Source: an uncultured Bacteroidales bacterium (GTDB lineage: Bacteria > Bacteroidota > Bacteroidia > Bacteroidales > UBA7960). Taken from it: 64,000 nt of DNA. Of this stretch, positions 29,160 through 64,000 are shown one piece after another. The DNA lies in the NCBI GenBank assembly GCA_964349365.1, contig CAYGFY010000013.1:3729-67728 (forward strand), written 5' to 3'. Both the position numbers and the translations under genes were made by a program. Within the stretch, counting starts at the first letter, position 1. Each line of letters opens with the position of its first letter. The notes beneath the pieces were generated by a model. It was not told the DNA's origin, ran no database searches, and worked only from the letters and a program-made list of their open reading frames with translations.

Positions 29160-29354
29160 CTTTTGAAAGTTAGAATTTAAAAGTGAGAAGTCGAAAGTAA
29201 AAGGTTGAAAGTCAAAAGTTAAAAACCTAAAGCCAAAATCCATTTTGCAAACTAAAGGACACCAAGCAAAGTCGCTCAAAGGGCACAAAGTCAAAAGCTA
29301 ATCCGTGATAATCCGTTAAATTCGGGTAATCCGCGTTTCAATCTATTCGTAGTT

Positions 29355-32565: not shown

Positions 32566-32585
32566 GGTATTTATATTTTGAAATA

Positions 32586-32600
32586 AGCTATTGCACAAAG
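32586..32600. repeat. left terminal inverted repeat AGCTATTGCACAAAG of the GxxExxY cassette
   Basis: It is the perfect reverse complement of 33163-33177. CACAAAG/CTCAAAG words follow it inward. Confidence 0.9.
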
Positions 32601-32603
32601 TTA
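32596..32603 (-). promoter_or_regulatory. outward-facing -7 box TAACTTTG spanning the inner edge of the left inverted repeat, positioned to drive the men gene string
   Basis: The reverse complement of CAAAGTTA is TAACTTTG, an exact TAnnTTTG match, 31 nt upstream of the ATG at 32565. Confidence 0.4.
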
Positions 32604-32682
32604 CTCAAAGAAAAATCTCAAAGTTCCACAAAGAAAACCACAAAAAGGGCTTATCGAAGTCAAAACAAGTAATAGAAAGAAA

Positions 32683-33054
32683 TCAAATTACAACCCGCTT
32701 TATTCCTTTTTTCAATGAAGTAACTTGAAAATTCAACGATAACCCAAGTTTATAACCACCTAATCCAAGGTATGTCAAAACTTGCGCAGTATGGACATCA
32801 GTAAATGCTTCAACCGTCTTTATCTCAACTACCACTTTATCATTTACCAGCAAATCAATGCGATACCCATGATCAAGTTTAACATCTGTGTAAACAATTG
32901 GCATTGGTTTTTCTTTAACCACATTATGCCCTTTGCTCTTCAATTCAAAATTTAGACATTCTTGAAAGGCGGATTCAAGCAGGCCGGACCCTAGCATCCC
33001 GCGAACATCAATAGCACAACCAATTATTTTATTGGACAACTCATTTTCGTTCAT
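32683..33054 (-). CDS. GxxExxY-family protein (PD-(D/E)XK nuclease-like fold)
   Basis: 123-aa ORF. The family motif region is GSGLLESAFQECLNFEL and the PD-(D/E)XK-like core is YRIDLLVNDKVVVEIKTV. Confidence 0.85.
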   Translation of the reverse strand: MNENELSNKIIGCAIDVRGMLGSGLLESAFQECLNFELKSKGHNVVKEKPMPIVYTDVKLDHGYRIDLLVNDKVVVEIKTVEAFTDVHTAQVLTYLGLGGYKLGLSLNFQVTSLKKGIKRVVI

Positions 33055-33162
33055 ATCGGGGACATTATTGGTTTGGAGCGAAATTTTAAAAGCATTCTAA
33101 ACACATTAAGATTAAGATTTTGCTGCAAACTATTTTGTGTTTTTTGTGAATCCTTTGTGTTC

Positions 33163-33177
33163 CTTTGTGCAATAGCT
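33163..33177. repeat. right terminal inverted repeat CTTTGTGCAATAGCT of the GxxExxY cassette
   Basis: It is the perfect reverse complement of 32586-32600 and ends 3 nt from the rimO stop codon. Confidence 0.9.
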
Positions 33178-33180
33178 ATT

Positions 33181-34476
33181 TTATTTTCCACAACCTTCGA
33201 AGGTAGCAAAAAGTTCAAAATCAGTTGCCGAAGTAATGGTTACATTTGCAAATTCGCCCACTTTAATACAAGGATGAAACGAAACCAGCACCTCGTTGTC
33301 AACTTCCGGTGAATCGAACTCGGTGCGGCCCGTGAAATATTCCCCTTCAAGCCTGTCGATTATCACCTTGAATGTCTGCCCGATTTTCTGCTGATTCAAC
33401 TCCGCCGATATTTTGCGCTGCATCTCCATCAATTGATTGGCACGGCGTTGTTTTTCCTTTTCAGGAACATCATCGGGCAGTTCATAGGCCCTCGTGCCCT
33501 CTTCGGGCGAATAGGTAAAAACACCCAGCCTATCAAACTTAACCAACGCCACAAAATCCATGAGTTCCTTAAATTGTTCCTTTGTTTCACCAGGGAAACC
33601 CAACATAAGTGTTGTTCGCAGGGCTATTCCCGGTACCTGCTGCTTGAATTTTTCCAAGAGGCCCAAAGTCATGGCTTTATCGTGTCCCCGGCGCATATCG
33701 CTCAAAATCTTGTCGTTGATGTGTTGTAGGGGTATGTCAACGTACTTGCAGATTTTCGGATTGGTTGCCATTATGTTTATTACGTCCTCCGGGAAGTTTT
33801 TCGGGTAAGCATAATGAAGCCTAATCCATTCTATGCCATCAATTTCACTTATTTGTTGGAGCAGAGGCGCAAGCAACGATTTCTTTTCCAAATCATAACC
33901 ATAATAGGTCAAGTCCTGGGCAATAAGGAGCAATTCCTTAACCCCCTTTCTTGCCAGTTGGGTTGCCTCGGCAACAAGGCTTTCGATGGTTCGCGATTTG
34001 GCTTCGCCCCTAATCAATGGAATGGCGCAGAAAGAACAAGTGCGATCGCAACCCTCCGAAATTTTCAAGTAGGCAAAATGGCCAGGCGATATCAAGAACC
34101 TTTCGCCAATTTGGTTGTGGGGCTTGTTAGCGAAATGCTTCAAAATGTCTTCTAATCCACGAGCGCCAAACCAAAAATCCACCTCCGGAATTTCGGCCTT
34201 TAGCTCATCCATATACCTCTGAGATAGGCATCCCAAAACAACTAGTTCTTTTACTTGTCCCTCTTGCCGCGCCCTTGCATACTGCAAAATGGTTTCAATG
34301 CTTTCTTCCTTGGCATCCTTTATGAAGCCACAAGTATTGATCACGACAATATCGGCGGGTTCAGCGGAATCGTGCATTATTTTAAAATCAATTTCGGAAA
34401 GTTGGCCCAGAAAATGTTCGGAGTCAACCAAATTTTTCGAACATCCGAGAGTTATGAGGTTTAGAGAGGTAGGCAT
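33181..34476 (-). CDS. rimO: ribosomal protein S12 methylthiotransferase
   Basis: 431-aa ORF with the UPF0004 N-terminus LITLGCSKNLVDSE, the radical SAM motif CDRTCSFCAIP and a C-terminal TRAM domain. Confidence 0.92.
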   Translation of the reverse strand: MPTSLNLITLGCSKNLVDSEHFLGQLSEIDFKIMHDSAEPADIVVINTCGFIKDAKEESIETILQYARARQEGQVKELVVLGCLSQRYMDELKAEIPEVDFWFGARGLEDILKHFANKPHNQIGERFLISPGHFAYLKISEGCDRTCSFCAIPLIRGEAKSRTIESLVAEATQLARKGVKELLLIAQDLTYYGYDLEKKSLLAPLLQQISEIDGIEWIRLHYAYPKNFPEDVINIMATNPKICKYVDIPLQHINDKILSDMRRGHDKAMTLGLLEKFKQQVPGIALRTTLMLGFPGETKEQFKELMDFVALVKFDRLGVFTYSPEEGTRAYELPDDVPEKEKQRRANQLMEMQRKISAELNQQKIGQTFKVIIDRLEGEYFTGRTEFDSPEVDNEVLVSFHPCIKVGEFANVTITSATDFELFATFEGCGK

Positions 34477-34481
34477 TAATT

Positions 34482-34549
34482 AAGTGAAAAGTGAATAGTG
34501 GTTGAGAGGTTTAGAGGTTTAGAGGTTGAGGGGTCGAGAATTTTAGAGG
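34482..34549. repeat. C-depleted word array (GTGAAAAGT / AGGTTTAG units)
   Basis: The 68-nt sequence is AAGTGAAAAGTGAATAGTGGTTGAGAGGTTTAGAGGTTTAGAGGTTGAGGGGTCGAGAATTTTAGAGG. It contains a single C. Confidence 0.85.
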
Positions 34550-37638: not shown

Positions 37639-37678
37639 GCACAAAGTTTCTCAAAGCATTTCACAAAGTTCCACAAAG
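37639..37678 (+). repeat. solo CACAAAG/CTCAAAG word array homologous to the left end of the GxxExxY cassette
   Basis: The sequence is GCACAAAGTTTCTCAAAGCATTTCACAAAGTTCCACAAAG. The cassette end reads GCACAAAGTTACTCAAAG....CTCAAAGTTCCACAAAG. The two share blocks of 17/18 and 15/15 identity. Confidence 0.8.
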
Positions 37679-37744
37679 TAAGGCAATAAAAGATTAGGAA
37701 CACAAATGGTTTTTGAGTTTTTCGATTGAGATTTAATAACAAAT

Positions 37745-38707
37745 ATGAGAGGTAAGAAAAGGGAGGTTTTTTTAGGTATCGATGTCGGAGGCACCAGCAT
37801 AAAGGCCGGTCTTTTTGACACCAAATACCATCTACTATCGCGTTTTAGCCTTGCAGTGAGCAAGGACGATAACCCTTCCGATTGTTTTACTACCTTGTTA
37901 GATTGGTTAAAGACTCCCGAGGTTTCAAACCAATACAATGTTATTTCTGCCGGAATGGGCTTGCCGGGGTTGTTCGACCAAGATTCAGGTGCTTTGAAAA
38001 TGGCTCCAAACCTTCCAAAATGGGTTGGTTTCGGGATTAGAACCTTTTTCGAGAAGGAAACTGGATTGAAAATTTTAGTTGATAACGACGCAAATATGGC
38101 TGCTCTTGGCGAATACGAGGTTGGCAGTGGCAGTGATTTTGCCAGTATGGTTATGCTTACCCTTGGAACGGGTGTTGGAGGAGCTATAATCGTTGACGGG
38201 AAAATGCTCGAGCTAAACGGTTTTTCAAGTGAAATAGGCCACATGATCATAGATATTAACGGTGTGTTGTGTAGCTGTGGCCACCGAGGCTGCCTTGAAA
38301 CTCTCGCAGCCAAGAATGGTATTATAAGGCTTTTCTACAATACCTTGGAAAAAAACGGTGCGGTAGAAAGCAATTACAAGGATTTAGAACAAATTACTCC
38401 ACTGCAACTATCCAAATTGGCCCGAGAGGGCGACAAGTTTGCCATGTGTACTTATAGGCAATCGGGCAGGGCCGTTGGAATAGGGATTAGCAACATTCTT
38501 AATATTATTAGACTCGATGGTGTTGTAATTGGTGGTGGGATTGCCAATGCCTGGGATGGTTTTTTTCAATCAATAGAACAAACCGTTGCAAAATTAACCT
38601 TTGATTTCAACCCCGAAAAAACCAAAATCAAAAAAGCCTCTCTAGGCTCCGATGCCGGGATTATTGGATCAGCAGTAATGGCGAGGAAAGTGAAAAATGA
38701 AAAGTGA
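37745..38707 (+). CDS. ROK family sugar kinase (glucokinase-like)
   Basis: 320-aa ORF with FLGIDVGGTSIKAGL and the ROK zinc motif CSCGHRGCLET. The overlapping 37651..38313 minus ORF is an antisense shadow. Confidence 0.88.
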   Translation: MRGKKREVFLGIDVGGTSIKAGLFDTKYHLLSRFSLAVSKDDNPSDCFTTLLDWLKTPEVSNQYNVISAGMGLPGLFDQDSGALKMAPNLPKWVGFGIRTFFEKETGLKILVDNDANMAALGEYEVGSGSDFASMVMLTLGTGVGGAIIVDGKMLELNGFSSEIGHMIIDINGVLCSCGHRGCLETLAAKNGIIRLFYNTLEKNGAVESNYKDLEQITPLQLSKLAREGDKFAMCTYRQSGRAVGIGISNILNIIRLDGVVIGGGIANAWDGFFQSIEQTVAKLTFDFNPEKTKIKKASLGSDAGIIGSAVMARKVKNEK

Positions 38708-38900
38708 AAAGTGAAAAGTAAAAAGTAATTGGTGATTGGTGACAAAAAAGAGTTTAAATGTTTTTAAGTTTTATGGTTTAAACGATTAAACATTTCAACC
38801 TTGAAACCCTCTTCAATTCGTAATTCTCAATTGTCATTCGTTAATCGTTAATATCTCAATCGTTCCATCTCTCCATCGTTCAATCGTTTCCTCGCTCTCT
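38689..38900 (+). repeat. composite skewed-word element, copy A (heptamer GTGAAAA array + GGTGATTGG + AACGATTAAAC...CTCTTCAATTCGTAATTC + CAATCGTT words)
   Basis: Its core 38727-38832 aligns with 44150-44290 and with the reverse complement of 57896-58030. The left half is nearly C-free and the right half is G-poor. Confidence 0.85.
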
Positions 38901-40942: not shown

Positions 40943-41411
40943 GTGATGAGTGAATGGTTAACGGTTAAGAGTGAAGAACTAAGGCTTTGTTTTCGATTTT
41001 AACGGGCCGGTTGACGAGACCAAAATTGATGCTTGTTCTTTGCATTGAAAGGAAGGTTCTCAAACGGGGATTCATTTAAAAAATCAGTGTCATTTAAAAT
41101 GTTTAACCATTACCCTTTTTCGTTAGCTTCTTTTGGTGCGAAGGTAAATTTATTCACGAAATCAGGTTAACTTGGTTCTGATCGGCTTCCCTTGCCAAGG
41201 CATCAATTGCGGTTCCCTACTTTAGCAGTTGTATGGTTATTACGAATTCATTATGTTCCATAACCTGCAACCGACATAATCTAACAACCTCAACAGCAAA
41301 ATCGCATGACTGTTCTTTTAAGGGTCCAACCTTACGCCCAGATTTCAGGTTAATTTATTCTTTAAACTCTTGGTTCTTAGTTTTTAACTCTTTGCTCTTC
41401 ACTCTTTGTTC

Positions 41412-42794
41412 TTAACTTTTAACCACAAAAACCTGCGCTGTCTCGTATTTTACAACGGTTACTTTTTCACCCTTTTCCACGTAGCCGGTAAGAGCCGTGG
41501 CATCGTAAACTTCGCCATTGATCTCAACCTTGCCGCTGGGGCGAAGCACCGTAAAGGCAACACCCGATTGGCCAACCAACGCTGCAATCTCACTAATTGC
41601 CGAAGTATATCCTTTCTCCTTGCCCTGTTCGGTTTGGAGGGCAAATCCGGCAAACCTCTGGGTTTTGGTAAAAAGCTTTCCTGAAAGCCAAATTGAACCA
41701 ACTATGGAAAGAAACATGGCGATTAAAACCACCGAAAACGAACCCACTATCTCCTTGGTAGGGATGCCCCTGAAATTGAACCCATCATTTCCGAGCATGG
41801 CCAAAACCAACGACATAACCATGAAGGAAATACCAATGACTCCTGCAACCCCAAAACCAGGCAATACAAAAATTTCGACACCAAGAAGTATAATTCCAAT
41901 CCCGAACAAAATAATTTCCCAATTGGAAGCCAATCCTTCAAGGTAATTTGGAGCGAAAAACAAGGTAGCAGCAATTATTGCAACAAGCAGGGGGAAGCCC
42001 ACACCCGGCGTTTGGAACTCAAAGTAAACACCGCCAAGGATTAGCATGATCAGCAAACCGCTGATTAAAGGATTAAGTAGAAAAGTAATAATTCTATCAA
42101 GAATTGTAAGTCTTAGTTCCATGATAGTGTAATTCTCAATCCCTGCAATGGTTAATACTTCGGAAACGGTTTCTGCCGTGCCTTCACTAAAACCGTGTTT
42201 CTTGGCTTCGGAAGCGGTGAATGTAAGAACCTTGCCTTCTTCTATTATTCCCGGAATTTCGATGCTAGGGTCAACCATTGCTTGCGCAATATCGGGGTTG
42301 CGTCCCTTTGCTTCGGCAGTTGACCTCATCATGCTACGCATGTACGATTGAAATTTGTCGGCAACCACTTCGCCGGTTTGGTCAACAACAGTGGCGGCAC
42401 CAATGTTTGCACCGGAGCGCATGTAAATACGGTCGGATGCAATAGAAATCAAGGCTCCTGCAGAGGCCGCGTTGTTGTCAACAAACACGATTACCGGAAT
42501 TTTTGATTGCATTATTCGAGTGCGTACCGAGTCGGCAATATTAACCATTCCCCCGTAGGTGTTCATGTGTATTAGAATGAAGTCAACCTTGAGGCTATCA
42601 GCTTCCTTAAATGCCTTTTGAAGTTTGAACAACACGGGGGGGGCAATATTTTCCTTCATTTCAAATTTGTAAACCATGAAGGTTCTTGTGGGGTCTTTTT
42701 CAATAATTTGAGAAATGCGGTCATTCTCTCTGGCAAAACTAATTAAAGAGAAAACCATGATGGAAATGGCCAGAAACGCAAATCGCTTTTTCAT
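41412..42794 (-). CDS. membrane-bound NfeD-family protein (ClpP-class serine protease domain + TM bundle + C-terminal OB fold)
   Basis: 460-aa ORF. The N-terminal ClpP-like domain has NTYGGMV and NNAASAGALI. Central TM helices follow, then a C-terminal RPSGKVEINGEVYDA. Confidence 0.82.
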   Translation of the reverse strand: MKKRFAFLAISIMVFSLISFARENDRISQIIEKDPTRTFMVYKFEMKENIAPPVLFKLQKAFKEADSLKVDFILIHMNTYGGMVNIADSVRTRIMQSKIPVIVFVDNNAASAGALISIASDRIYMRSGANIGAATVVDQTGEVVADKFQSYMRSMMRSTAEAKGRNPDIAQAMVDPSIEIPGIIEEGKVLTFTASEAKKHGFSEGTAETVSEVLTIAGIENYTIMELRLTILDRIITFLLNPLISGLLIMLILGGVYFEFQTPGVGFPLLVAIIAATLFFAPNYLEGLASNWEIILFGIGIILLGVEIFVLPGFGVAGVIGISFMVMSLVLAMLGNDGFNFRGIPTKEIVGSFSVVLIAMFLSIVGSIWLSGKLFTKTQRFAGFALQTEQGKEKGYTSAISEIAALVGQSGVAFTVLRPSGKVEINGEVYDATALTGYVEKGEKVTVVKYETAQVFVVKS

Positions 42795-43586: not shown

Positions 43587-43819
43587 TTTTAAAAGTTTTA
43601 AGAGTTTAAATGTTTAAAAAGTTGATACGTAGAGGGTTATTTGGGTTTGCGGTCATTTATGGTAGGTTGCACATGGCAACATTAAGCAAAATTATAGCTC
43701 ATGGCACAAAGCAGGTGTCGATGGTCTGTTTTTGCAATTTCAATATTGAGTTGTATTTATTACCAATCAACAATCAATCGCCGTTTAGCTTTTTGCCCTT
43801 GGCCATAACCACAAAAAAA

Positions 43820-43914
43820 GGGTAAGCTTAATATCGCACCGCTACGACCGCCTACCCTTGCTACCTTCCGATCCTGGGGGAGTTCAGCGGGAGCTGGTCG
43901 TATCAACCTTACCC
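43820..43914 (-). ncRNA. ffs: signal recognition particle RNA (small bacterial type)
   Basis: The minus-strand sequence is GGGUAAG..UACGACC...CCCCCAGGAUCGGAAGGUAGCAAGGGUAGGC GGUCGUA...CUUACCC. It has the universal domain IV pattern CAGG..GGAA tetraloop..AGCA. The terminal helix is GGGUAAG/CUUACCC and the inner helix is UACGACC/GGUCGUA. A U-run follows at 43813-43819, and a TACTTTTG -7 box sits 5 nt upstream. Confidence 0.85.
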
Positions 43915-43918
43915 GGTG

Positions 43919-43926
43919 CAAAAGTA
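43919..43926 (-). promoter_or_regulatory. -7 promoter box TACTTTTG for ffs
   Basis: The reverse complement of CAAAAGTA is TACTTTTG, immediately upstream of the predicted 5' end of the SRP RNA. Confidence 0.5.
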
Positions 43927-44094
43927 ATACTTTTTTTTCGAAAATATTATTTTTTAATTGAAAGCAAAAGGTAGATAGTCAAAAAGTTAAAAGTCGGTAG
44001 TTGATCTGTGTAAATCTTTTCGATTACTGGCGGTTCTGTGATGAAACATTTGGTAGTTTGTGATTAATAAGTTGCTGGTTTTCTATCAAAGGCC

Positions 44095-44290
44095 CTTTTT
44101 TACCACAATTACACGAAGCTGAAGCCACGCAATGAACGCAAAGTCAAGAGTGATTGGTAATTGGTGATTGGTAAAAAAAAAGTTAATTGTTTTAAAGTTC
44201 TAAACGATTAAACCTTTCAACCTTAAAACCCTCTTCAAATCGCAATTCGCAATTTTTAATTCTCATTTGTTCATTCTCAATTCTCAATTA
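44095..44290 (+). repeat. composite skewed-word element, copy B (long form)
   Basis: The sequence is TTTTACCACAATTACACGAAGCTGAAGCCACGCAATGAACGCAAAGTCAAGAGTGATTGGTAATTGGTGATTGGTAAAAAAA...AACGATTAAACCTTTCAACCTTAAAACCCTCTTCAAATCGCAATTCGC. It aligns along its length with the reverse complement of 57896-58078. Confidence 0.88.
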
Positions 44291-44308: not shown

Positions 44309-44316
44309 TAAATTTG
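44309..44316 (+). promoter_or_regulatory. -7 promoter box TAAATTTG upstream of uvrB
   Basis: Exact TAnnTTTG match, 17 nt upstream of the ATG at 44333. Confidence 0.45.
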
Positions 44317-44332
44317 CAGAAATCAACATTTG

Positions 44333-46360
44333 ATGAAATTCCAGATAGTTTCTGATTTCGTGCCTACCGGCGATCAACCCGAAGCCATTTCGCAACTGGT
44401 TGACGGTCTTAATGCCGGACTTGATTCGCAAACACTTTTGGGGGTTACGGGTTCGGGGAAGACATTTACAATAGCAAATGTTATTGAAAGGGTTCAAAAG
44501 CCCACATTGGTTCTTAGCCACAACAAGACTCTTGCAGCACAACTTTACGGTGAATTCAAGCAGTTTTTTCCAGAAAATGCAGTGGAATACTTCGTTTCGT
44601 ATTACGACTACTACCAGCCGGAGGCCTACATTCCGACCACCAATACATACATTGAAAAAGACCTATCAATAAATGATGAAATTGAGAAATTGCGTCTTAG
44701 CGCAACCAGTTCACTTTTGTCGGGTCGCAGGGATGTAATTGTGGTCAGTTCCGTTTCGTGCATTTACGGCATAGGCAACCCTGCCGACTTCAAGGAAAAC
44801 ACGACCAGCCTGAGGGTAGGTGACGTGGTGAGGCGCAACAAGTTCTTGCACCGGCTTGTAGAAAGCCTTTACACGCGCACCAGGGCCGAGTTCAATCGTG
44901 GAAACTTCAGGGTGCAGGGCGACACCGTTGACATTTTTCCGGCCTATGCCGACATTGCTTTCAGGGTAGTTTTTTGGGGCGACCAAATTGAAGCCCTGCA
45001 AACCATTGATCCTGCAAGCGGCACCAAAACAAACGAAATGGACATGATGACCATTTATCCTGCCAACATTTTCGTCACCAGCAAGGAAAGGATTGGCAGT
45101 GCTATAAGGCAAATACAGGATGATTTGTTCAAGCAAGTCGCATTTTTCCGAAACCAAGGGCGCAACCTGGAGGCAAAAAGATTGGAAGACAGGGTGAATT
45201 ATGACATGGAAATGATTAAAGAGCTTGGCTACTGCTCGGGAATTGAGAATTATTCGAGGTATTTCGACGGACGCGAAATTGGCACTAGACCGTTTTGCCT
45301 GCTTGATTTCTTTCCCGATGATTTCTTGATGGTTATAGACGAGAGCCACGCAACGGTGCCACAGGTTAGGGCAATGTACGGAGGCGATTTTTCTCGAAAG
45401 TACAATTTGGTTGAGTATGGTTTCAGGCTTCCGGCAGCATTGGACAACAGGCCATTAAAGTTTGAAGAATTCGAGCAGTTCATGCGGCAGGTAATATTTG
45501 TTAGCGCAACCCCGGCTGACTTCGAACTTGCCAGAAGCCATGGGGTCGTGGTTGAACAAATTATAAGGCCGACCGGACTTTTGGAGCCGGTGATTGATGT
45601 AAGACCAAGTCAAAACCAGATTGACGACTTGCTCGAAGAAATAATTCTGCGCACCGAAAAAGATGAGAGGGTTTTGGTTACCACGCTCACTAAAAGAATG
45701 GCCGAGGAGTTAACCAAATATCTTACCAAGGCAAGCGTTAGGGCTCGCTACATACACTCCGATGTTGAAACTTTGGAGAGGGTTGAGATACTTCGTGATT
45801 TAAGGTTAGGATTATTTGACGTTTTGGTTGGTGTAAACTTACTGCGCGAGGGTTTAGACTTACCTGAGGTGTCGCTTGTGGCCATTCTGGATGCAGATAA
45901 GGAAGGGTTTCTTCGCTCGGAGCGTTCACTTATTCAAACCTCTGGTAGGGCTGCCCGCAATCTTAACAGTAAGGTGATAATGTATGCAGATAAAATTACT
46001 AGATCAATGCAGGTTACCATTGACGAGACAAACCGCAAGCGCGAAAAGCAATTAAAGTACAACCAGGAGAACAACATTACCCCGGCTCAAATTAGGAAAT
46101 CTGTTGAGGCCATTCACGGGCAGTCGCAGGTGGCCGGAATTTCAGGTTCAGTCTCAAAAGCTTACACGGAAAGGGAAATTGCCGATATGGCCGCAGACCC
46201 GGTAGTGCAATACATGACAAAGGAACAAATGCAAAAGACCATGATAAAAACCCGCAAGGAAATGGAAAAAGCCGCCAAGGCTCTTGATTTCATCGAAGCA
46301 GCCAGGGTTCGAGATGAGCTTTTGGCCCTGGAAAAGTTGTTTGGTGAGAGGTTTTTGTGA
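44333..46360 (+). CDS. uvrB: excinuclease ABC subunit B
   Basis: Contains GVTGSGKTFT, DESHATVPQ, helicase motifs and the C-terminal UVR domain EAARVRDELLALE. The ATG at 44333 is preferred over the TTG at 44330. Confidence 0.95.
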   Translation: MKFQIVSDFVPTGDQPEAISQLVDGLNAGLDSQTLLGVTGSGKTFTIANVIERVQKPTLVLSHNKTLAAQLYGEFKQFFPENAVEYFVSYYDYYQPEAYIPTTNTYIEKDLSINDEIEKLRLSATSSLLSGRRDVIVVSSVSCIYGIGNPADFKENTTSLRVGDVVRRNKFLHRLVESLYTRTRAEFNRGNFRVQGDTVDIFPAYADIAFRVVFWGDQIEALQTIDPASGTKTNEMDMMTIYPANIFVTSKERIGSAIRQIQDDLFKQVAFFRNQGRNLEAKRLEDRVNYDMEMIKELGYCSGIENYSRYFDGREIGTRPFCLLDFFPDDFLMVIDESHATVPQVRAMYGGDFSRKYNLVEYGFRLPAALDNRPLKFEEFEQFMRQVIFVSATPADFELARSHGVVVEQIIRPTGLLEPVIDVRPSQNQIDDLLEEIILRTEKDERVLVTTLTKRMAEELTKYLTKASVRARYIHSDVETLERVEILRDLRLGLFDVLVGVNLLREGLDLPEVSLVAILDADKEGFLRSERSLIQTSGRAARNLNSKVIMYADKITRSMQVTIDETNRKREKQLKYNQENNITPAQIRKSVEAIHGQSQVAGISGSVSKAYTEREIADMAADPVVQYMTKEQMQKTMIKTRKEMEKAAKALDFIEAARVRDELLALEKLFGERFL

Positions 46361-47750: not shown

Positions 47751-47841
47751 GATTTAATTGGTTAAATGAGTTAATAAAGGGTAGTTACGAAAAAAATGTT
47801 TTGCTAAAACTCGGGGCGAAGTTATAGGTTTTTTTTTGTAT

Positions 47842-57367: not shown

Positions 57368-57886
57368 ATGCGTGTAAAAAGAATTGCCCCGCTATACGAA
57401 GTCAAAACCGAAACCGCTCCCATTGACCTTGCTCTCATTGACCCCATTTTGGAAAAGTACAAGGGGGAGGCCGGAAACCTGATACCCCTGCTTCAGGGCA
57501 CACAGGAGGCATTGGGGTTCATTCCAAGGGAGGCATTGGTGAAAATTAGCCGGGAAACAGGCATCCCAATTACCGACCTTTACGGTGTGGCAACCTTTTA
57601 CGCACAATTCAAGCTTGTGCCCAGAGGCAAGTACATTATAAAAATGTGCCACGGTACTGCCTGCCACGTGCAAACCGTGCACGAAGTAACAAACCAATTA
57701 CTTGATTTTTTGGAAATAAAAGATGGGGAAACAACCGCCAACGGCTTGTTTACCCTCGAAACAGTAGCTTGCCTCGGTTGCTGCTCTCTGGCACCTGTAA
57801 TGATGATTAACGAAGACACGCACGGAAAGCTCACACCGGCGCAGGGGCTGAAGATTGTGAAGGAAATAAAACGCTCTAATCATTAA
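57368..57886 (+). CDS. NuoE/HydC/HndA-type thioredoxin-like [2Fe-2S] subunit
   Basis: The cluster ligand pattern is CHGTACHV ... CLGCCSLAPVMMI. The start could alternatively be at 57338. Confidence 0.88.
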   Translation: MRVKRIAPLYEVKTETAPIDLALIDPILEKYKGEAGNLIPLLQGTQEALGFIPREALVKISRETGIPITDLYGVATFYAQFKLVPRGKYIIKMCHGTACHVQTVHEVTNQLLDFLEIKDGETTANGLFTLETVACLGCCSLAPVMMINEDTHGKLTPAQGLKIVKEIKRSNH

Positions 57887-57895
57887 TGGTTAATG

Positions 57896-58078
57896 GACAA
57901 TTGAGAATTACTAATTACGAATTGAAGAGGGTTTCAAGCTTGAAATGTTAATAGCTTAAAACTTTAAAACTTTAAAACTTTAAAACAATTAAACTCTTTT
58001 TTTACCAATCACCAATTACTAATCACTCTTGACTTAGCGTTCATTACGTGGCTTTAGCTTCTTGTAATTGTGGTAAAA
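57896..58078 (-). repeat. composite skewed-word element, copy C (long form, inverted) between the NuoE-like and NuoF-like genes
   Basis: Its reverse complement aligns with 44095-44290. It contains a local tandem AAAACTTT x3.5 at 57957-57986. Confidence 0.88.
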
Positions 58079-58165
58079 ATGGCTTTTGATTGATGGCTAA
58101 CGATTCATTAACCGCAGATTAACACCGACCGGCTATTGCCATAATACTTTGAACTCTTAACCAAT

Positions 58166-59944
58166 ATGAGCAAAACAACCATTATTGTTGGGCTTGGGAG
58201 CTGCGGTATTGCCGCGGGGGCTTCAAAAACATACGCCGAGCTCGAAAGGATCAAAAGTGCCGACAAACTGGATTTCGAGCTTAAAAAAACCAGTTGCGTG
58301 GGCATGTGCTTCCGCGAGCCACTGGTTGAGGTCATTGACGAATCTGGAACTTACCTTTACGGAAACGTAGATCCCGAAAGGGTCGACGAAATAATTGACA
58401 AGCACGTCAAGAACTTCTCGCCAATTCATGATTACATCGTACATGGCAAGAACCTCCAAACCGCCGATGATGGATTTTTTGAAGGCCAGGTAAAGATTGC
58501 CCTGAAAAACTGCGGTTTTATAGACCCGGAGAAAATAGAAGAGTACGAAGCCAACGGCGGCTACGATGCAATACGAATGATAGCCGACGGATCAATTGAC
58601 CAGGACAGGGTAATACAAATGATAATAGATTCCGGCTTGCGTGGCCGAGGGGGTGGCGGCTTTCCAACCGGAATGAAATGGCGGCTTGCACGCAACGCAA
58701 AAAGCGAAAAAAAATACGTTATCTGCAATGCCGACGAGGGCGACCCCGGAGCGTTCATGGACAGGTCAATCCTTGAAGGCGACCCTCATGGAGTGCTCGA
58801 AGGGATGATTATTTGCGGATACTCAATAGGAGCTTGCGTGGGCTACATATATTGCAGGGCCGAATACCCGCTGGCAATAAAACGGCTAAACGTTGCAATT
58901 GGTCAGGCGCGAGAAAAAGGTTACCTCGGAAAAAACATTTTCGGCATGGTGGGATTTGACTTCGATATAATAATAAAAGAGGGTGCAGGCGCATTCGTTT
59001 GTGGAGAGGAAACAGCACTTATTGCTTCTATCGAAGGTAAACGTGGCATGCCGCGCAAACGTCCGCCATTTCCGGCTAACTCGGGCTTGTGGAGGTATCC
59101 TACTAACATAAATAACGTTGAAACCTTCGTTAACATTCCGCGAATAATACTTGAAGGCCCTGAAAAATATGCAGCGCTTGGCACCGAAAAAAGCAAGGGA
59201 ACCAAGGTATTTGCCCTCACGGGAAAAATAAAACGGGGCGGTTTGGTTGAAGTTCCCATGGGAATTAGCATCAAGGATGTGATTTACAAGCTTGGTGGCG
59301 GTATAGTTGCCGACAAAAAGTTCAAGGCAGTGCAACTCGGAGGCCCTTCTGGCGGATGCTTGCCCGAGTACCTCTCTGATACCAGGGTTGATTACGATTC
59401 GGTAAACGCCACCGGTGCCATCATGGGTTCGGGGGGTATGGTAGTCATGGACGAAACCACCTGCGTGGTTGACATTGCTAGGTTCTTTTTGGATTTTACT
59501 TGCAAGGAATCGTGCGGCAAGTGTACATTTTGTCGCATTGGCACCAAGCGAATGCTGGAAATCTTGACCCGGATAACCCAGGGCGAAGGCAAGGAAGGCG
59601 ACATTGAACTGCTCGAGGAACTTTCTACCACCATCAAGAACAACTCGCTTTGCGGACTGGGCCAAACGGCACCAAACCCGGTGCTCACAACAATAAAGTA
59701 TTTCCGAACAGAATACGAGGCCCACATTAACAACAAGAAGTGCCCGGCGTTGAGTTGCAAGAAGCTACTAACATACACCATAAACAAGAAAGCTTGCACC
59801 GGCTGCACCGCTTGCGCCAGAGGCTGCCCTGTAACGGCAATCATCGGCGAGAAAAGGATGCCACACGAAGTATCGCAAGAAATCTGCATCAAATGCGGAA
59901 TTTGCTACACCAAGTGCAAGTTTGGGGCTATAGTTTTAAGTTGA
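58166..59944 (+). CDS. NuoF/HydB/HndC-type NAD(H)- and FMN-binding iron-sulfur subunit with C-terminal 2x[4Fe-4S] ferredoxin domain
   Basis: 592-aa ORF with GRGGGGFPTGMKW, CNADEGDPGAFMDR, ESCGKCTFCRIG...CGLG, and a C-terminal CTGCTACARGCP and CIKCGICYTKC. It has an N-terminal thioredoxin-like domain. Confidence 0.9.
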   Translation: MSKTTIIVGLGSCGIAAGASKTYAELERIKSADKLDFELKKTSCVGMCFREPLVEVIDESGTYLYGNVDPERVDEIIDKHVKNFSPIHDYIVHGKNLQTADDGFFEGQVKIALKNCGFIDPEKIEEYEANGGYDAIRMIADGSIDQDRVIQMIIDSGLRGRGGGGFPTGMKWRLARNAKSEKKYVICNADEGDPGAFMDRSILEGDPHGVLEGMIICGYSIGACVGYIYCRAEYPLAIKRLNVAIGQAREKGYLGKNIFGMVGFDFDIIIKEGAGAFVCGEETALIASIEGKRGMPRKRPPFPANSGLWRYPTNINNVETFVNIPRIILEGPEKYAALGTEKSKGTKVFALTGKIKRGGLVEVPMGISIKDVIYKLGGGIVADKKFKAVQLGGPSGGCLPEYLSDTRVDYDSVNATGAIMGSGGMVVMDETTCVVDIARFFLDFTCKESCGKCTFCRIGTKRMLEILTRITQGEGKEGDIELLEELSTTIKNNSLCGLGQTAPNPVLTTIKYFRTEYEAHINNKKCPALSCKKLLTYTINKKACTGCTACARGCPVTAIIGEKRMPHEVSQEICIKCGICYTKCKFGAIVLS

Positions 59945-60157
59945 TGGACTGATATTTTTATAGGTTGGGGATTTAATGAGGCCTATGAGGTGAATGGTTT
60001 AAAGGTTTAAAAATATGGCTGAGTGGCAATTAAAATGAGAAATGAAAATTTCTGCACGAACTCAGCGCTCCCAGCGTACATGCGGCTAAAAATTACTTTT
60101 TGATCGGGCGATTGGCTTTAAAACATTGCGATAAGAGGAAAAAAATAATTACATTTG

Positions 60158-63835: not shown

Positions 63836-64000
63836 CAGATTTTTGAGGATGGTTAGATTTTTTTCGGGTAATGCGTTAACGATTGGTGGTGAAATTTATT
63901 TTCTTTTATATTACTCCGGGGCATCAACCTGAAGGGGAAGTAGGCCGCGGTATTTACAAATCTGCCTTTTACTGGATTGGTGATTGAACGGTTGAAATCG

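Follow-up and report, generated by a model that had tools for sequence, protein, structure and literature searches.

Pneumococcal BOX elements (boxA-boxB(n)-boxC) are dispersed, non-autonomous intergenic repeats of modular build with a variable internal module, and we know of no cognate transposase for them. In Porphyromonas gingivalis, BrickBuilt has been described as a species-specific, always intergenic MITE in which tandem repeats are placed between a leader and a tail (Klein et al. 2015; PMC4596501). BrickBuilt elements carry small inverted ends, some copies are without leader or tail, and the number of repeats is variable; the 23-nt unit is present in 1-23 copies and elements extend to 991 nt (PMC4596501). 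Bidirectional promoter activity has been demonstrated for segments of BrickBuilt (PMC4596501). Arrays of shorter units are also known; TAACTGA-type heptamer arrays occur in Beggiatoaceae, Cyanobacteria, and some Bacteroidetes, where they are intergenic, often lie by start or stop codons, and mix several heptamers in one spacer, and close relatives have shorter, array-free spacers (PMC4679880). BOX elements are also mentioned in a review (PMC10969869).

By description, the closest analogue of the repeat family reported here is BrickBuilt, as both are found in Bacteroidales and are lineage-restricted, intergenic, non-coding, and modular. However, the 23-nt units of BrickBuilt contrast with units of 7-8 nt in 2-6 copies in our family, its maximum of 991 nt with elements of 125-230 nt, and its promoter activity with the absence of a promoter box (TAnnTTTG -7 box) from both strands of all four copies identified here. 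BOX and RUP/SPRITE are likewise dispersed modular intergenic repeats with a variable internal module; BOX, by contrast, belongs to another phylum, has no sequence relation to our family, and is built from 45-60-nt modules with stable structures, whereas the units here are 7-8 nt long and the structures are weak. With heptamer arrays (including cyanobacterial STRR) the family shares head-to-tail 7-nt words in intergenic regions and, in the case of copy A (see below), a shorter, empty spacer in a relative; those arrays are purely tandem and of TAACTGA type, whereas the arrays here are short, are embedded in a dispersed element with unique sequence, and use words such as GGTGATT, CGTAATT, and AAAGTGA. 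The family is real and previously uncatalogued, and it is of a familiar kind. The original prediction, which had been made from the window (i.e., the whole stretch of 64,000 nt analysed here), could match the element to no described repeat family, and database searches bore this out. Rfam contained no family for the element, with ffs as the sole match in the whole window; when the threshold for the elements was relaxed to E 1, one single hit appeared, to CAESAR (E 0.14), which is attributable to chance. BLAST searches of plasmids and phages gave no match to the element either.

The contig that contains the window is part of ENA assembly ERZ27247798, and the same strain is present in Logan assemblies of ERR3094288-ERR3094301. 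Among named entries, the nearest UvrB homologues come from MAGs labelled Bacteroidales or Bacteroidetes, and the host is an uncultured Bacteroidales bacterium. Four copies of the element lie on one contig of 76,661 nt (the 64-kb window plus extensions):

38725-38838, + strand: copy A, core alone (profile match with E 8e-47, A itself being in the model)
approximately 44060-44275, + strand: copy B, full length, with left extension, foldback module, and core (alignment)
44157-44275, + strand: core of copy B
57892-58117, - strand: copy C, full length, inverted (alignment)
57892-58019, - strand: core of copy C
L129:18984-19112, same contig, about 5 kb past the end of the window: copy D (profile)

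The sequences predicted for the three copies in the window are present at their coordinates, and the family extends beyond the window, where a profile built from A, B, and C retrieved copy D with an E value of 3e-23; a lack of further copies there would, by the original prediction, have spoken against it. All four copies have in common a core of approximately 125 nt with 78-82% pairwise identity. B and C can be aligned end to end in opposite orientation, as had been claimed, and a repeat finder reported them as an inverted-repeat pair (44094-44223 and 57953-58082) with 130-nt arms that are 82% complementary; the same program found an A/C pair (90 nt, 80%) and an A/B direct repeat (97 nt, 75%), the latter in agreement with the claim that copy A has the right two-thirds of the element. 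Near identity of the left parts of B and C was likewise borne out, with 5 differences in approximately 81 nt (94%). With expected counts taken from dinucleotide-preserving shuffles, the 28-nt right core had 3 matches in the window at up to 2 mismatches (0 expected) and the 32-nt left end 2 occurrences (0 expected), and GTAATTGGTGATTGGT is present exactly in A, B, and C (3 occurrences); because these string counts are far above those in shuffles, the repeat is real and not a product of chance. In addition, copy C is where contigs of two other assemblies (L130, L131) begin, either within it or at its edge, which is the behaviour expected of a repeat.

The boundaries of copy B, on the other hand, had to be moved from those originally predicted. 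Its left end had been placed at 44095, but B and C remain homologous for approximately another 35 nt, to 44060 and 58117, respectively, and the left end is now defined by this 23/36 identity to copy C beyond the T-run. Its right end had been placed at 44290, but the end common to A, C, and D corresponds to approximately 44275, and the right end is now defined by the last block in common with these copies (CTCATTTGTTCATT, 44262-44275); the last 15 nt up to 44290 are flank, which is partly conserved in relatives too. Within these boundaries, copy B has the following parts:

44095-44182, + strand: left foldback module with inverted repeats, in which TTTTTTACCACAATTAC pairs with GTAATTGG(TGAT)TGGTAAAAAA; module ends TTTTTACCACAATTAC
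44157-44172, + strand: left terminal words of the core, GTAATTGGTGATTGGT, C-free heptamer units (TRF period 7)
44173-44229, + strand: A-run hinge and AT-rich (GTTTTAAA)-type segment, which includes a small hairpin, GTTTTAAAGTT / AACCTTAAAAC
44215-44242, + strand: unique right core, TTTCAACCTTAAAACCCTCTTCAAATCG
44262-44275, + strand: right terminal words, CTCATTTGTTCATT (consensus CTCAATTGTCAATT)

The core is bounded by imperfect inverted ends, GTAATTGGTGATTGG on the left and CTCAATTGTCAATT on the right, and is ordered as GTAATTGGTGATTGG words, A-run, GTTTTAAA-like octamers, weak hairpin, unique motif (TTTCAAsCTTrAAACCCTCTTCAA; extended form TTTCAAsCTTrAAACCCTCTTCAAwTCG), and CTCAATTGTCAATT words. 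Complementarity between the ends covers 14-16 nt, with 9/14 positions Watson-Crick and the rest G-T, and the ends are AATT-containing heptamers, which easily match each other. The left foldback module, which has an interior of approximately 45-50 nt between its paired arms, is found only in B and C and is 85-120 nt long. Octamer and heptamer copy numbers vary among copies, with 3.9 octamer units in C according to TRF, and the tandem arrays found, i.e., (AAAGTGA)5.7, (ATTGGTR)3, (TCAATTC)7.9, and (GAATTAC)2.7, make up only part of the element. Similarity among the copies is mosaic: B and C are 94% identical over 81 nt of the left module, and C and D have an exact 34-mer in common at the right end. 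This pattern points to recent copying of, or recombination among, the copies. The copies are homologous and dispersed, are confined to spacers, and gain or lose modules and 7-8-nt words.

The mirror G/C skew described in the original prediction is present, with 9 G and 0 C at positions 61-100 of copy B and 5 G and 23 C at positions 101-196; since a C-poor part is followed by a G-poor part, the element reads the same on both strands. In each of the four copies, stop codons occur in all three frames within 5-68 nt of either end. The element had also been said to hold no ORF, and indeed none of the four copies contains a called gene and no ORF is conserved between copies; reverse-strand ORFs of 31 aa and 21 aa in B and C represent common DNA read in different frames. 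Inspection by eye revealed an 11-codon ORF in the left module, at 44132-44167 and at the equivalent position in C (MNAKSRVIGNW and stop in B, MNAKSRVISNW and stop in C), with one of two differences synonymous. This ORF probably reflects chance; two sequences give no statistical power.

All four copies are intergenic, with A in a convergent, B in a divergent, and C and D in tandem arrangements. The genes and signals around them are as follows:

copy A: between convergent ROK-kinase and isochorismatase-family genes
38687-38726, + strand: (AAAGTGA)5.7 heptamer array (TRF), abutting copy A in the same 7-nt register
43816-43921, - strand: ffs (small SRP RNA) of Bacteroidales type (Rfam RF04183, 87.6 bits), left neighbour of copy B, outside the element
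43926-43919, - strand: ffs -7 box TACTTTTG, outside copy B
44309-44316, + strand: uvrB -7 box TAAATTTG, outside the element
44333, + strand: uvrB start
copy C: flanked by two + strand genes, NuoE-like (stop at 57886) and NuoF-like (start at 58166)
copy D: 150-nt spacer that separates the two - strand genes of a split transketolase

The original prediction had regarded copies inside coding regions at the same rate as in spacers as an argument against a spacer-specific function, and four out of four copies lie in spacers. Its placement of copy B between divergent ffs and uvrB stands, as Rfam confirms ffs and uvrB starts at 44333; its statement that the uvrB -7 box directly follows copy B does not, as the box begins 19 nt after the end that had been given. 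Both -7 boxes are in sequence that is conserved with relatives. Taken together, convergent, divergent, and tandem contexts, including a likely operon, indicate that the copies follow no single regulatory logic.

Two further observations concern these spacers. The ROK gene ends at 38707, with its last 7 residues and stop codon (RKVKNEK and stop) provided by the (AAAGTGA)5.7 array, and the C-terminus of its counterpart in the congener L125 is different (AKKLNN and stop); because the array encodes the end of the ROK protein and the congener end differs, the spacer repeat has rewritten the C-terminus of this protein. At the copy B locus, the uvrB-carrying Logan contigs (L121-L124, four independent contigs) all begin inside ffs, at approximately 43860-43875, and not at the repeat, probably because a conserved SRP RNA that is common to other community members breaks the assembly graph.

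Comparisons with relatives drew on two congeners, i.e., L125 (NCBI GCA_964624065.1), which has a UvrB that is 92% identical and is syntenic across the region, and L126, with a UvrB that is 93% identical. The ROK-isochorismatase spacer is 32 nt long in L125 versus 196 nt here, and both copy A and the heptamer array are absent. The spacer between ffs and uvrB is different in each of the three genomes compared, and neither L126 nor L125 has an intact copy B. At the same position in L125, this spacer holds 45 nt that are approximately 80% like the left arm and hinge (z 7.6 versus block shuffles). In L126, no element is found in the ffs-uvrB spacer, and an inverted 29-nt right-arm fragment, 86% identical to B, lies in the TAL_FSA-ffs spacer. 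Two fragments are also present in the window:

43587-43618, + strand: hinge-like fragment TTTTAAAAGTTTTAAGAGTTTAAATGTTTAAA, directly upstream of the TAL_FSA (transaldolase-family) start; alignment to copy D, z 8-9 (local alignment versus block shuffles)
59970-60012, - strand: degenerate right-module-like segment in the next spacer downstream, 44 nt approximately 70% like B, z 5.3 (weak)

These comparisons place the family in this genus-level lineage, in which it turns over fast and leaves fragments behind. Relatives with 82-83% UvrB identity showed no synteny and no match to the element, and the only close homologue lies on a 6.7-kb contig that ends short of the C and D sites. With regard to the words themselves, 7-8-nt word arrays occur at about the same frequency in each genome compared, and arrays in a sister species use the same words, CGTAATT and TTCAATT. 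One spacer of the sister species (L136:5633-5879) has a similar layout, namely a stop codon, C-poor AATTGAA words, GCCACG...AATGAAC, a palindrome (41-nt inverted-repeat match with 93% identity, CTTGAACCCTTAAAC), G-poor octamers, and a start codon, and its similarity to the element is marginal (z 2-4); GCCACG...AATGAAC is also present in the left module of the element.

JGI metagenomes yielded no additional copies in exact-motif scans, and the 22-base right core had zero matches. The scan with the left words plus hinge retrieved only two unrelated contigs (L127:1116-1163 and L128:765-837) with exact GTAATTGGTGATTGGT, in one of them inside a heptamer array of GGTAATT, GGGATT, and GGTGATT; the presence of GTAATTGGTGATTGGT in unrelated contigs indicates that the same heptamers recur in distant organisms. 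A scan of 596 Gb of genome contigs with the 16-mer TTRAAACCCTCTTCAA was discarded, as this pattern is too short and all 120 loci were chance matches by BLAST.

Skewed word arrays that are not copies of the element are found in other spacers. Strongly strand-skewed tandem words lie by gene ends at 34477-34549, 40943-40983, 41384-41417, 29162-29224, 2218-2260, 47751-47830, and 59945-60020; an example is (TAGAGGTT)6.8, which lies immediately upstream of the MiaB-like gene and has 31 G versus 2 C over 80 nt. A small PD-(D/E)XK nuclease-superfamily gene (32686-33054, - strand; PDDEXK_3, Pfam E 2.5e-37) is located between thioesterase and MiaB-like genes and is bracketed by 30-nt inverted repeats (32581-32610 and 33153-33182) that are 83% complementary and rich in CACAAAG; with its brackets (32581-33182), this gene looks like an inserted cassette. 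An array of CACAAAGTT words, which are related to the words that bracket the nuclease gene, is present at 37640-37692. Finally, approximately 1.1 kb without a called gene follow a 1225-aa oxidoreductase gene (63836-64000, continuing on to L129:13679-14785); this gap holds an 84-aa ORF in other assemblies and no Rfam match at gathering thresholds.

We consider it probable, at roughly 0.6, that the element represents a lineage-restricted, non-autonomous, modular intergenic repeat family that is MITE-like in a broad sense. Its size of 125-230 nt is under the MITE limit of approximately 500 bp and no coding capacity is conserved, and presence/absence is seen at orthologous sites, with A absent from L125 and intact B absent from both L126 and L125. 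The term MITE-like, as used in the original prediction, fits insofar as a small element without coding content is present in several copies, with ends of imperfect inverted similarity and with an orthologous site that is empty in a relative; it does not fit with respect to target-site duplication and partner transposase. No target-site duplication was found at the boundaries of A, B, C, and D, where word arrays blur the ends and a 2-nt duplication would be possible, and no transposase, RAYT, or IS was found in the window plus extensions (76.7 kb). With weak terminal repeats, no target-site duplication, and no transposase in 76.7 kb, membership of the MITEs in a strict sense is thus not established.

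In terms of mechanism, copies would be spread in trans by a transposase or recombinase whose gene lies elsewhere, through recombination with each other, or in both ways; slippage during replication would then diversify their word arrays, and the copies would decay into fragments. An old, now immobile family that is maintained by recombination would likewise fit the divergence of approximately 20% among copies and the fragments in relatives. The element is probably mainly selfish or neutral. Its mirror composition would make it alike in both orientations and would allow it to adjoin gene ends and starts without creating long ORFs, which may explain its tolerance in every gene arrangement. On present evidence, the element reveals no new regulatory mechanism.

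Among the alternatives, a cis-acting spacer or insulator that separates neighbouring transcription or translation units is the one that survives best, and we regard it as improbable. The bidirectional transcription insulator that the original prediction had raised as a possibility is unsupported, and the case for an insulator or leader is circumstantial. Incoming transcripts would run into a C-poor arm that has stops in every frame and outgoing transcripts would receive a G-poor, weakly structured leader; translation in Bacteroidetes does not rely on a Shine-Dalgarno sequence, and a G-poor leader would be suited to it. The mirror skew is real, and the all-frame stops within 5-68 nt of each end are found in the four copies. 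C and D, both in tandem arrangements, turn their G-poor ACCAATCACCAATTAC side to the downstream start codon, with this side approximately 20 nt from the ATG in D, between the two transketolase subunit genes, and other strongly skewed word arrays abut gene starts as well (e.g., 34477-34549 and 40943-40983). However, only these two copies are informative for the agreement in orientation, and a G-poor 5' flank is not general; the rule of G-poor 5' and C-poor 3' flanks was rejected, as 14 genes had C>G versus 13 with G>C among 30 called. Moreover, no intrinsic-terminator-like site was found in copies A and B, which were the two covered by the scan, and no promoter-like site was found in the copies; the left hairpin has a T-run before it and an A-run after it, which is the reverse of the terminator order, and its stems are AT-rich. 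Copy A is dispensable in the congener L125, and copy B lies upstream of both promoters, where there is no transcript to insulate.

A structured RNA produced from the + strand of the element, either as a small RNA gene or as a cis-regulatory hairpin with arms pairing through G-U, is less likely still. In an RNAalifold consensus, the two blocks of terminal words form 16 pairs, of which 5 are G-U, and one strand alone can hence form a helix; folding of the copy C core gives -26.1 kcal/mol (z -2.75) versus -11.8 for the other strand, and the left module has a z of -2.2 in B (-18.4 kcal/mol) and -2.8 in C. The cores of A, B, and D, by contrast, reach a z of only -0.8 to -1.0, and whole elements folded on both strands were no better than shuffles (z +0.3 to -0.9). 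Covariation was absent, with the observed score reached by 254 of 500 shuffles; in the small central hairpin of copy C, a G-C pair replaced by C-G looked compensatory and was rejected, as the left arms lie in non-homologous octamers and the stems are weak. Further points against such an RNA are that no promoter box is found in or next to the copies, that Rfam gave no match, that the foldable strand is antisense to both flanking genes in C and D, and that the element is not conserved at orthologous sites.

A broader proposal, to which we assign a similarly low likelihood, is that the family and the other skewed spacer arrays together represent a functional intercistronic cassette that works in either orientation, in bacteria that translate without Shine-Dalgarno sequences. 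In such a cassette, the proximal C-free arm would halt incoming translation in all frames, and the distal G-poor words (ACCAATC/ACCAATT) would act as an unstructured leader for the next gene or be bound by a regulator of single-stranded RNA or DNA, e.g., S1 or a cold-shock protein; if true, translation of adjacent genes would be rewired as the element spreads.

A REP/BIME- or IS200/IS605-type hairpin element, moved as single-stranded DNA by a Y1 transposase (RAYT or TnpA), ranks slightly lower yet. As in such elements, the left module and the core centre form imperfect hairpins, and the copies are extragenic, with one located between convergent genes like many REPs. The original prediction had offered REP-like as an alternative label, and this part does not hold, as the unit is modular and 125-230 nt long and thus differs in size and architecture from a palindrome of 20-40 nt. 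Its hairpins are weak and rich in A and T, with -2 to -9 kcal/mol for the central one, and neither RAYT nor any other Y1 transposase is present in the 76.7 kb. The conserved 5' tetranucleotide of REPs is, to our knowledge, not evident in the element.

Least likely of all, and already contradicted by the unique sequence that the copies share, is the absence of any element, with independent local expansions of heptamer and octamer words favoured in spacers of this lineage; 7-8-nt word arrays are common here and in relatives (2.5-15 per 10 kb), CGTAATT and TTCAATT are also arrayed in the sister species, and GGTAATTGGTGATTGG is present in unrelated metagenome contigs, but long non-repetitive stretches (the 28-nt right core, the module interior of about 50 nt, and the hinge) are common to the copies in the same order and the fourth copy was recovered by a profile at E 3e-23, so that this explanation survives solely as an origin of the arms.

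If the reading as a MITE-like, modular intergenic repeat family is true, this family would be the second modular tandem-word intergenic repeat in Bacteroidales after BrickBuilt, in an order in which small non-autonomous elements are barely catalogued. Such repeats would break metagenome assemblies, as seen for the two contigs that start at or inside copy C, and could serve as strain- or species-level markers. They would also inflate and reshape the spacers of their hosts and, as in the case of the ROK gene next to copy A, can rewrite the last codons of a gene.
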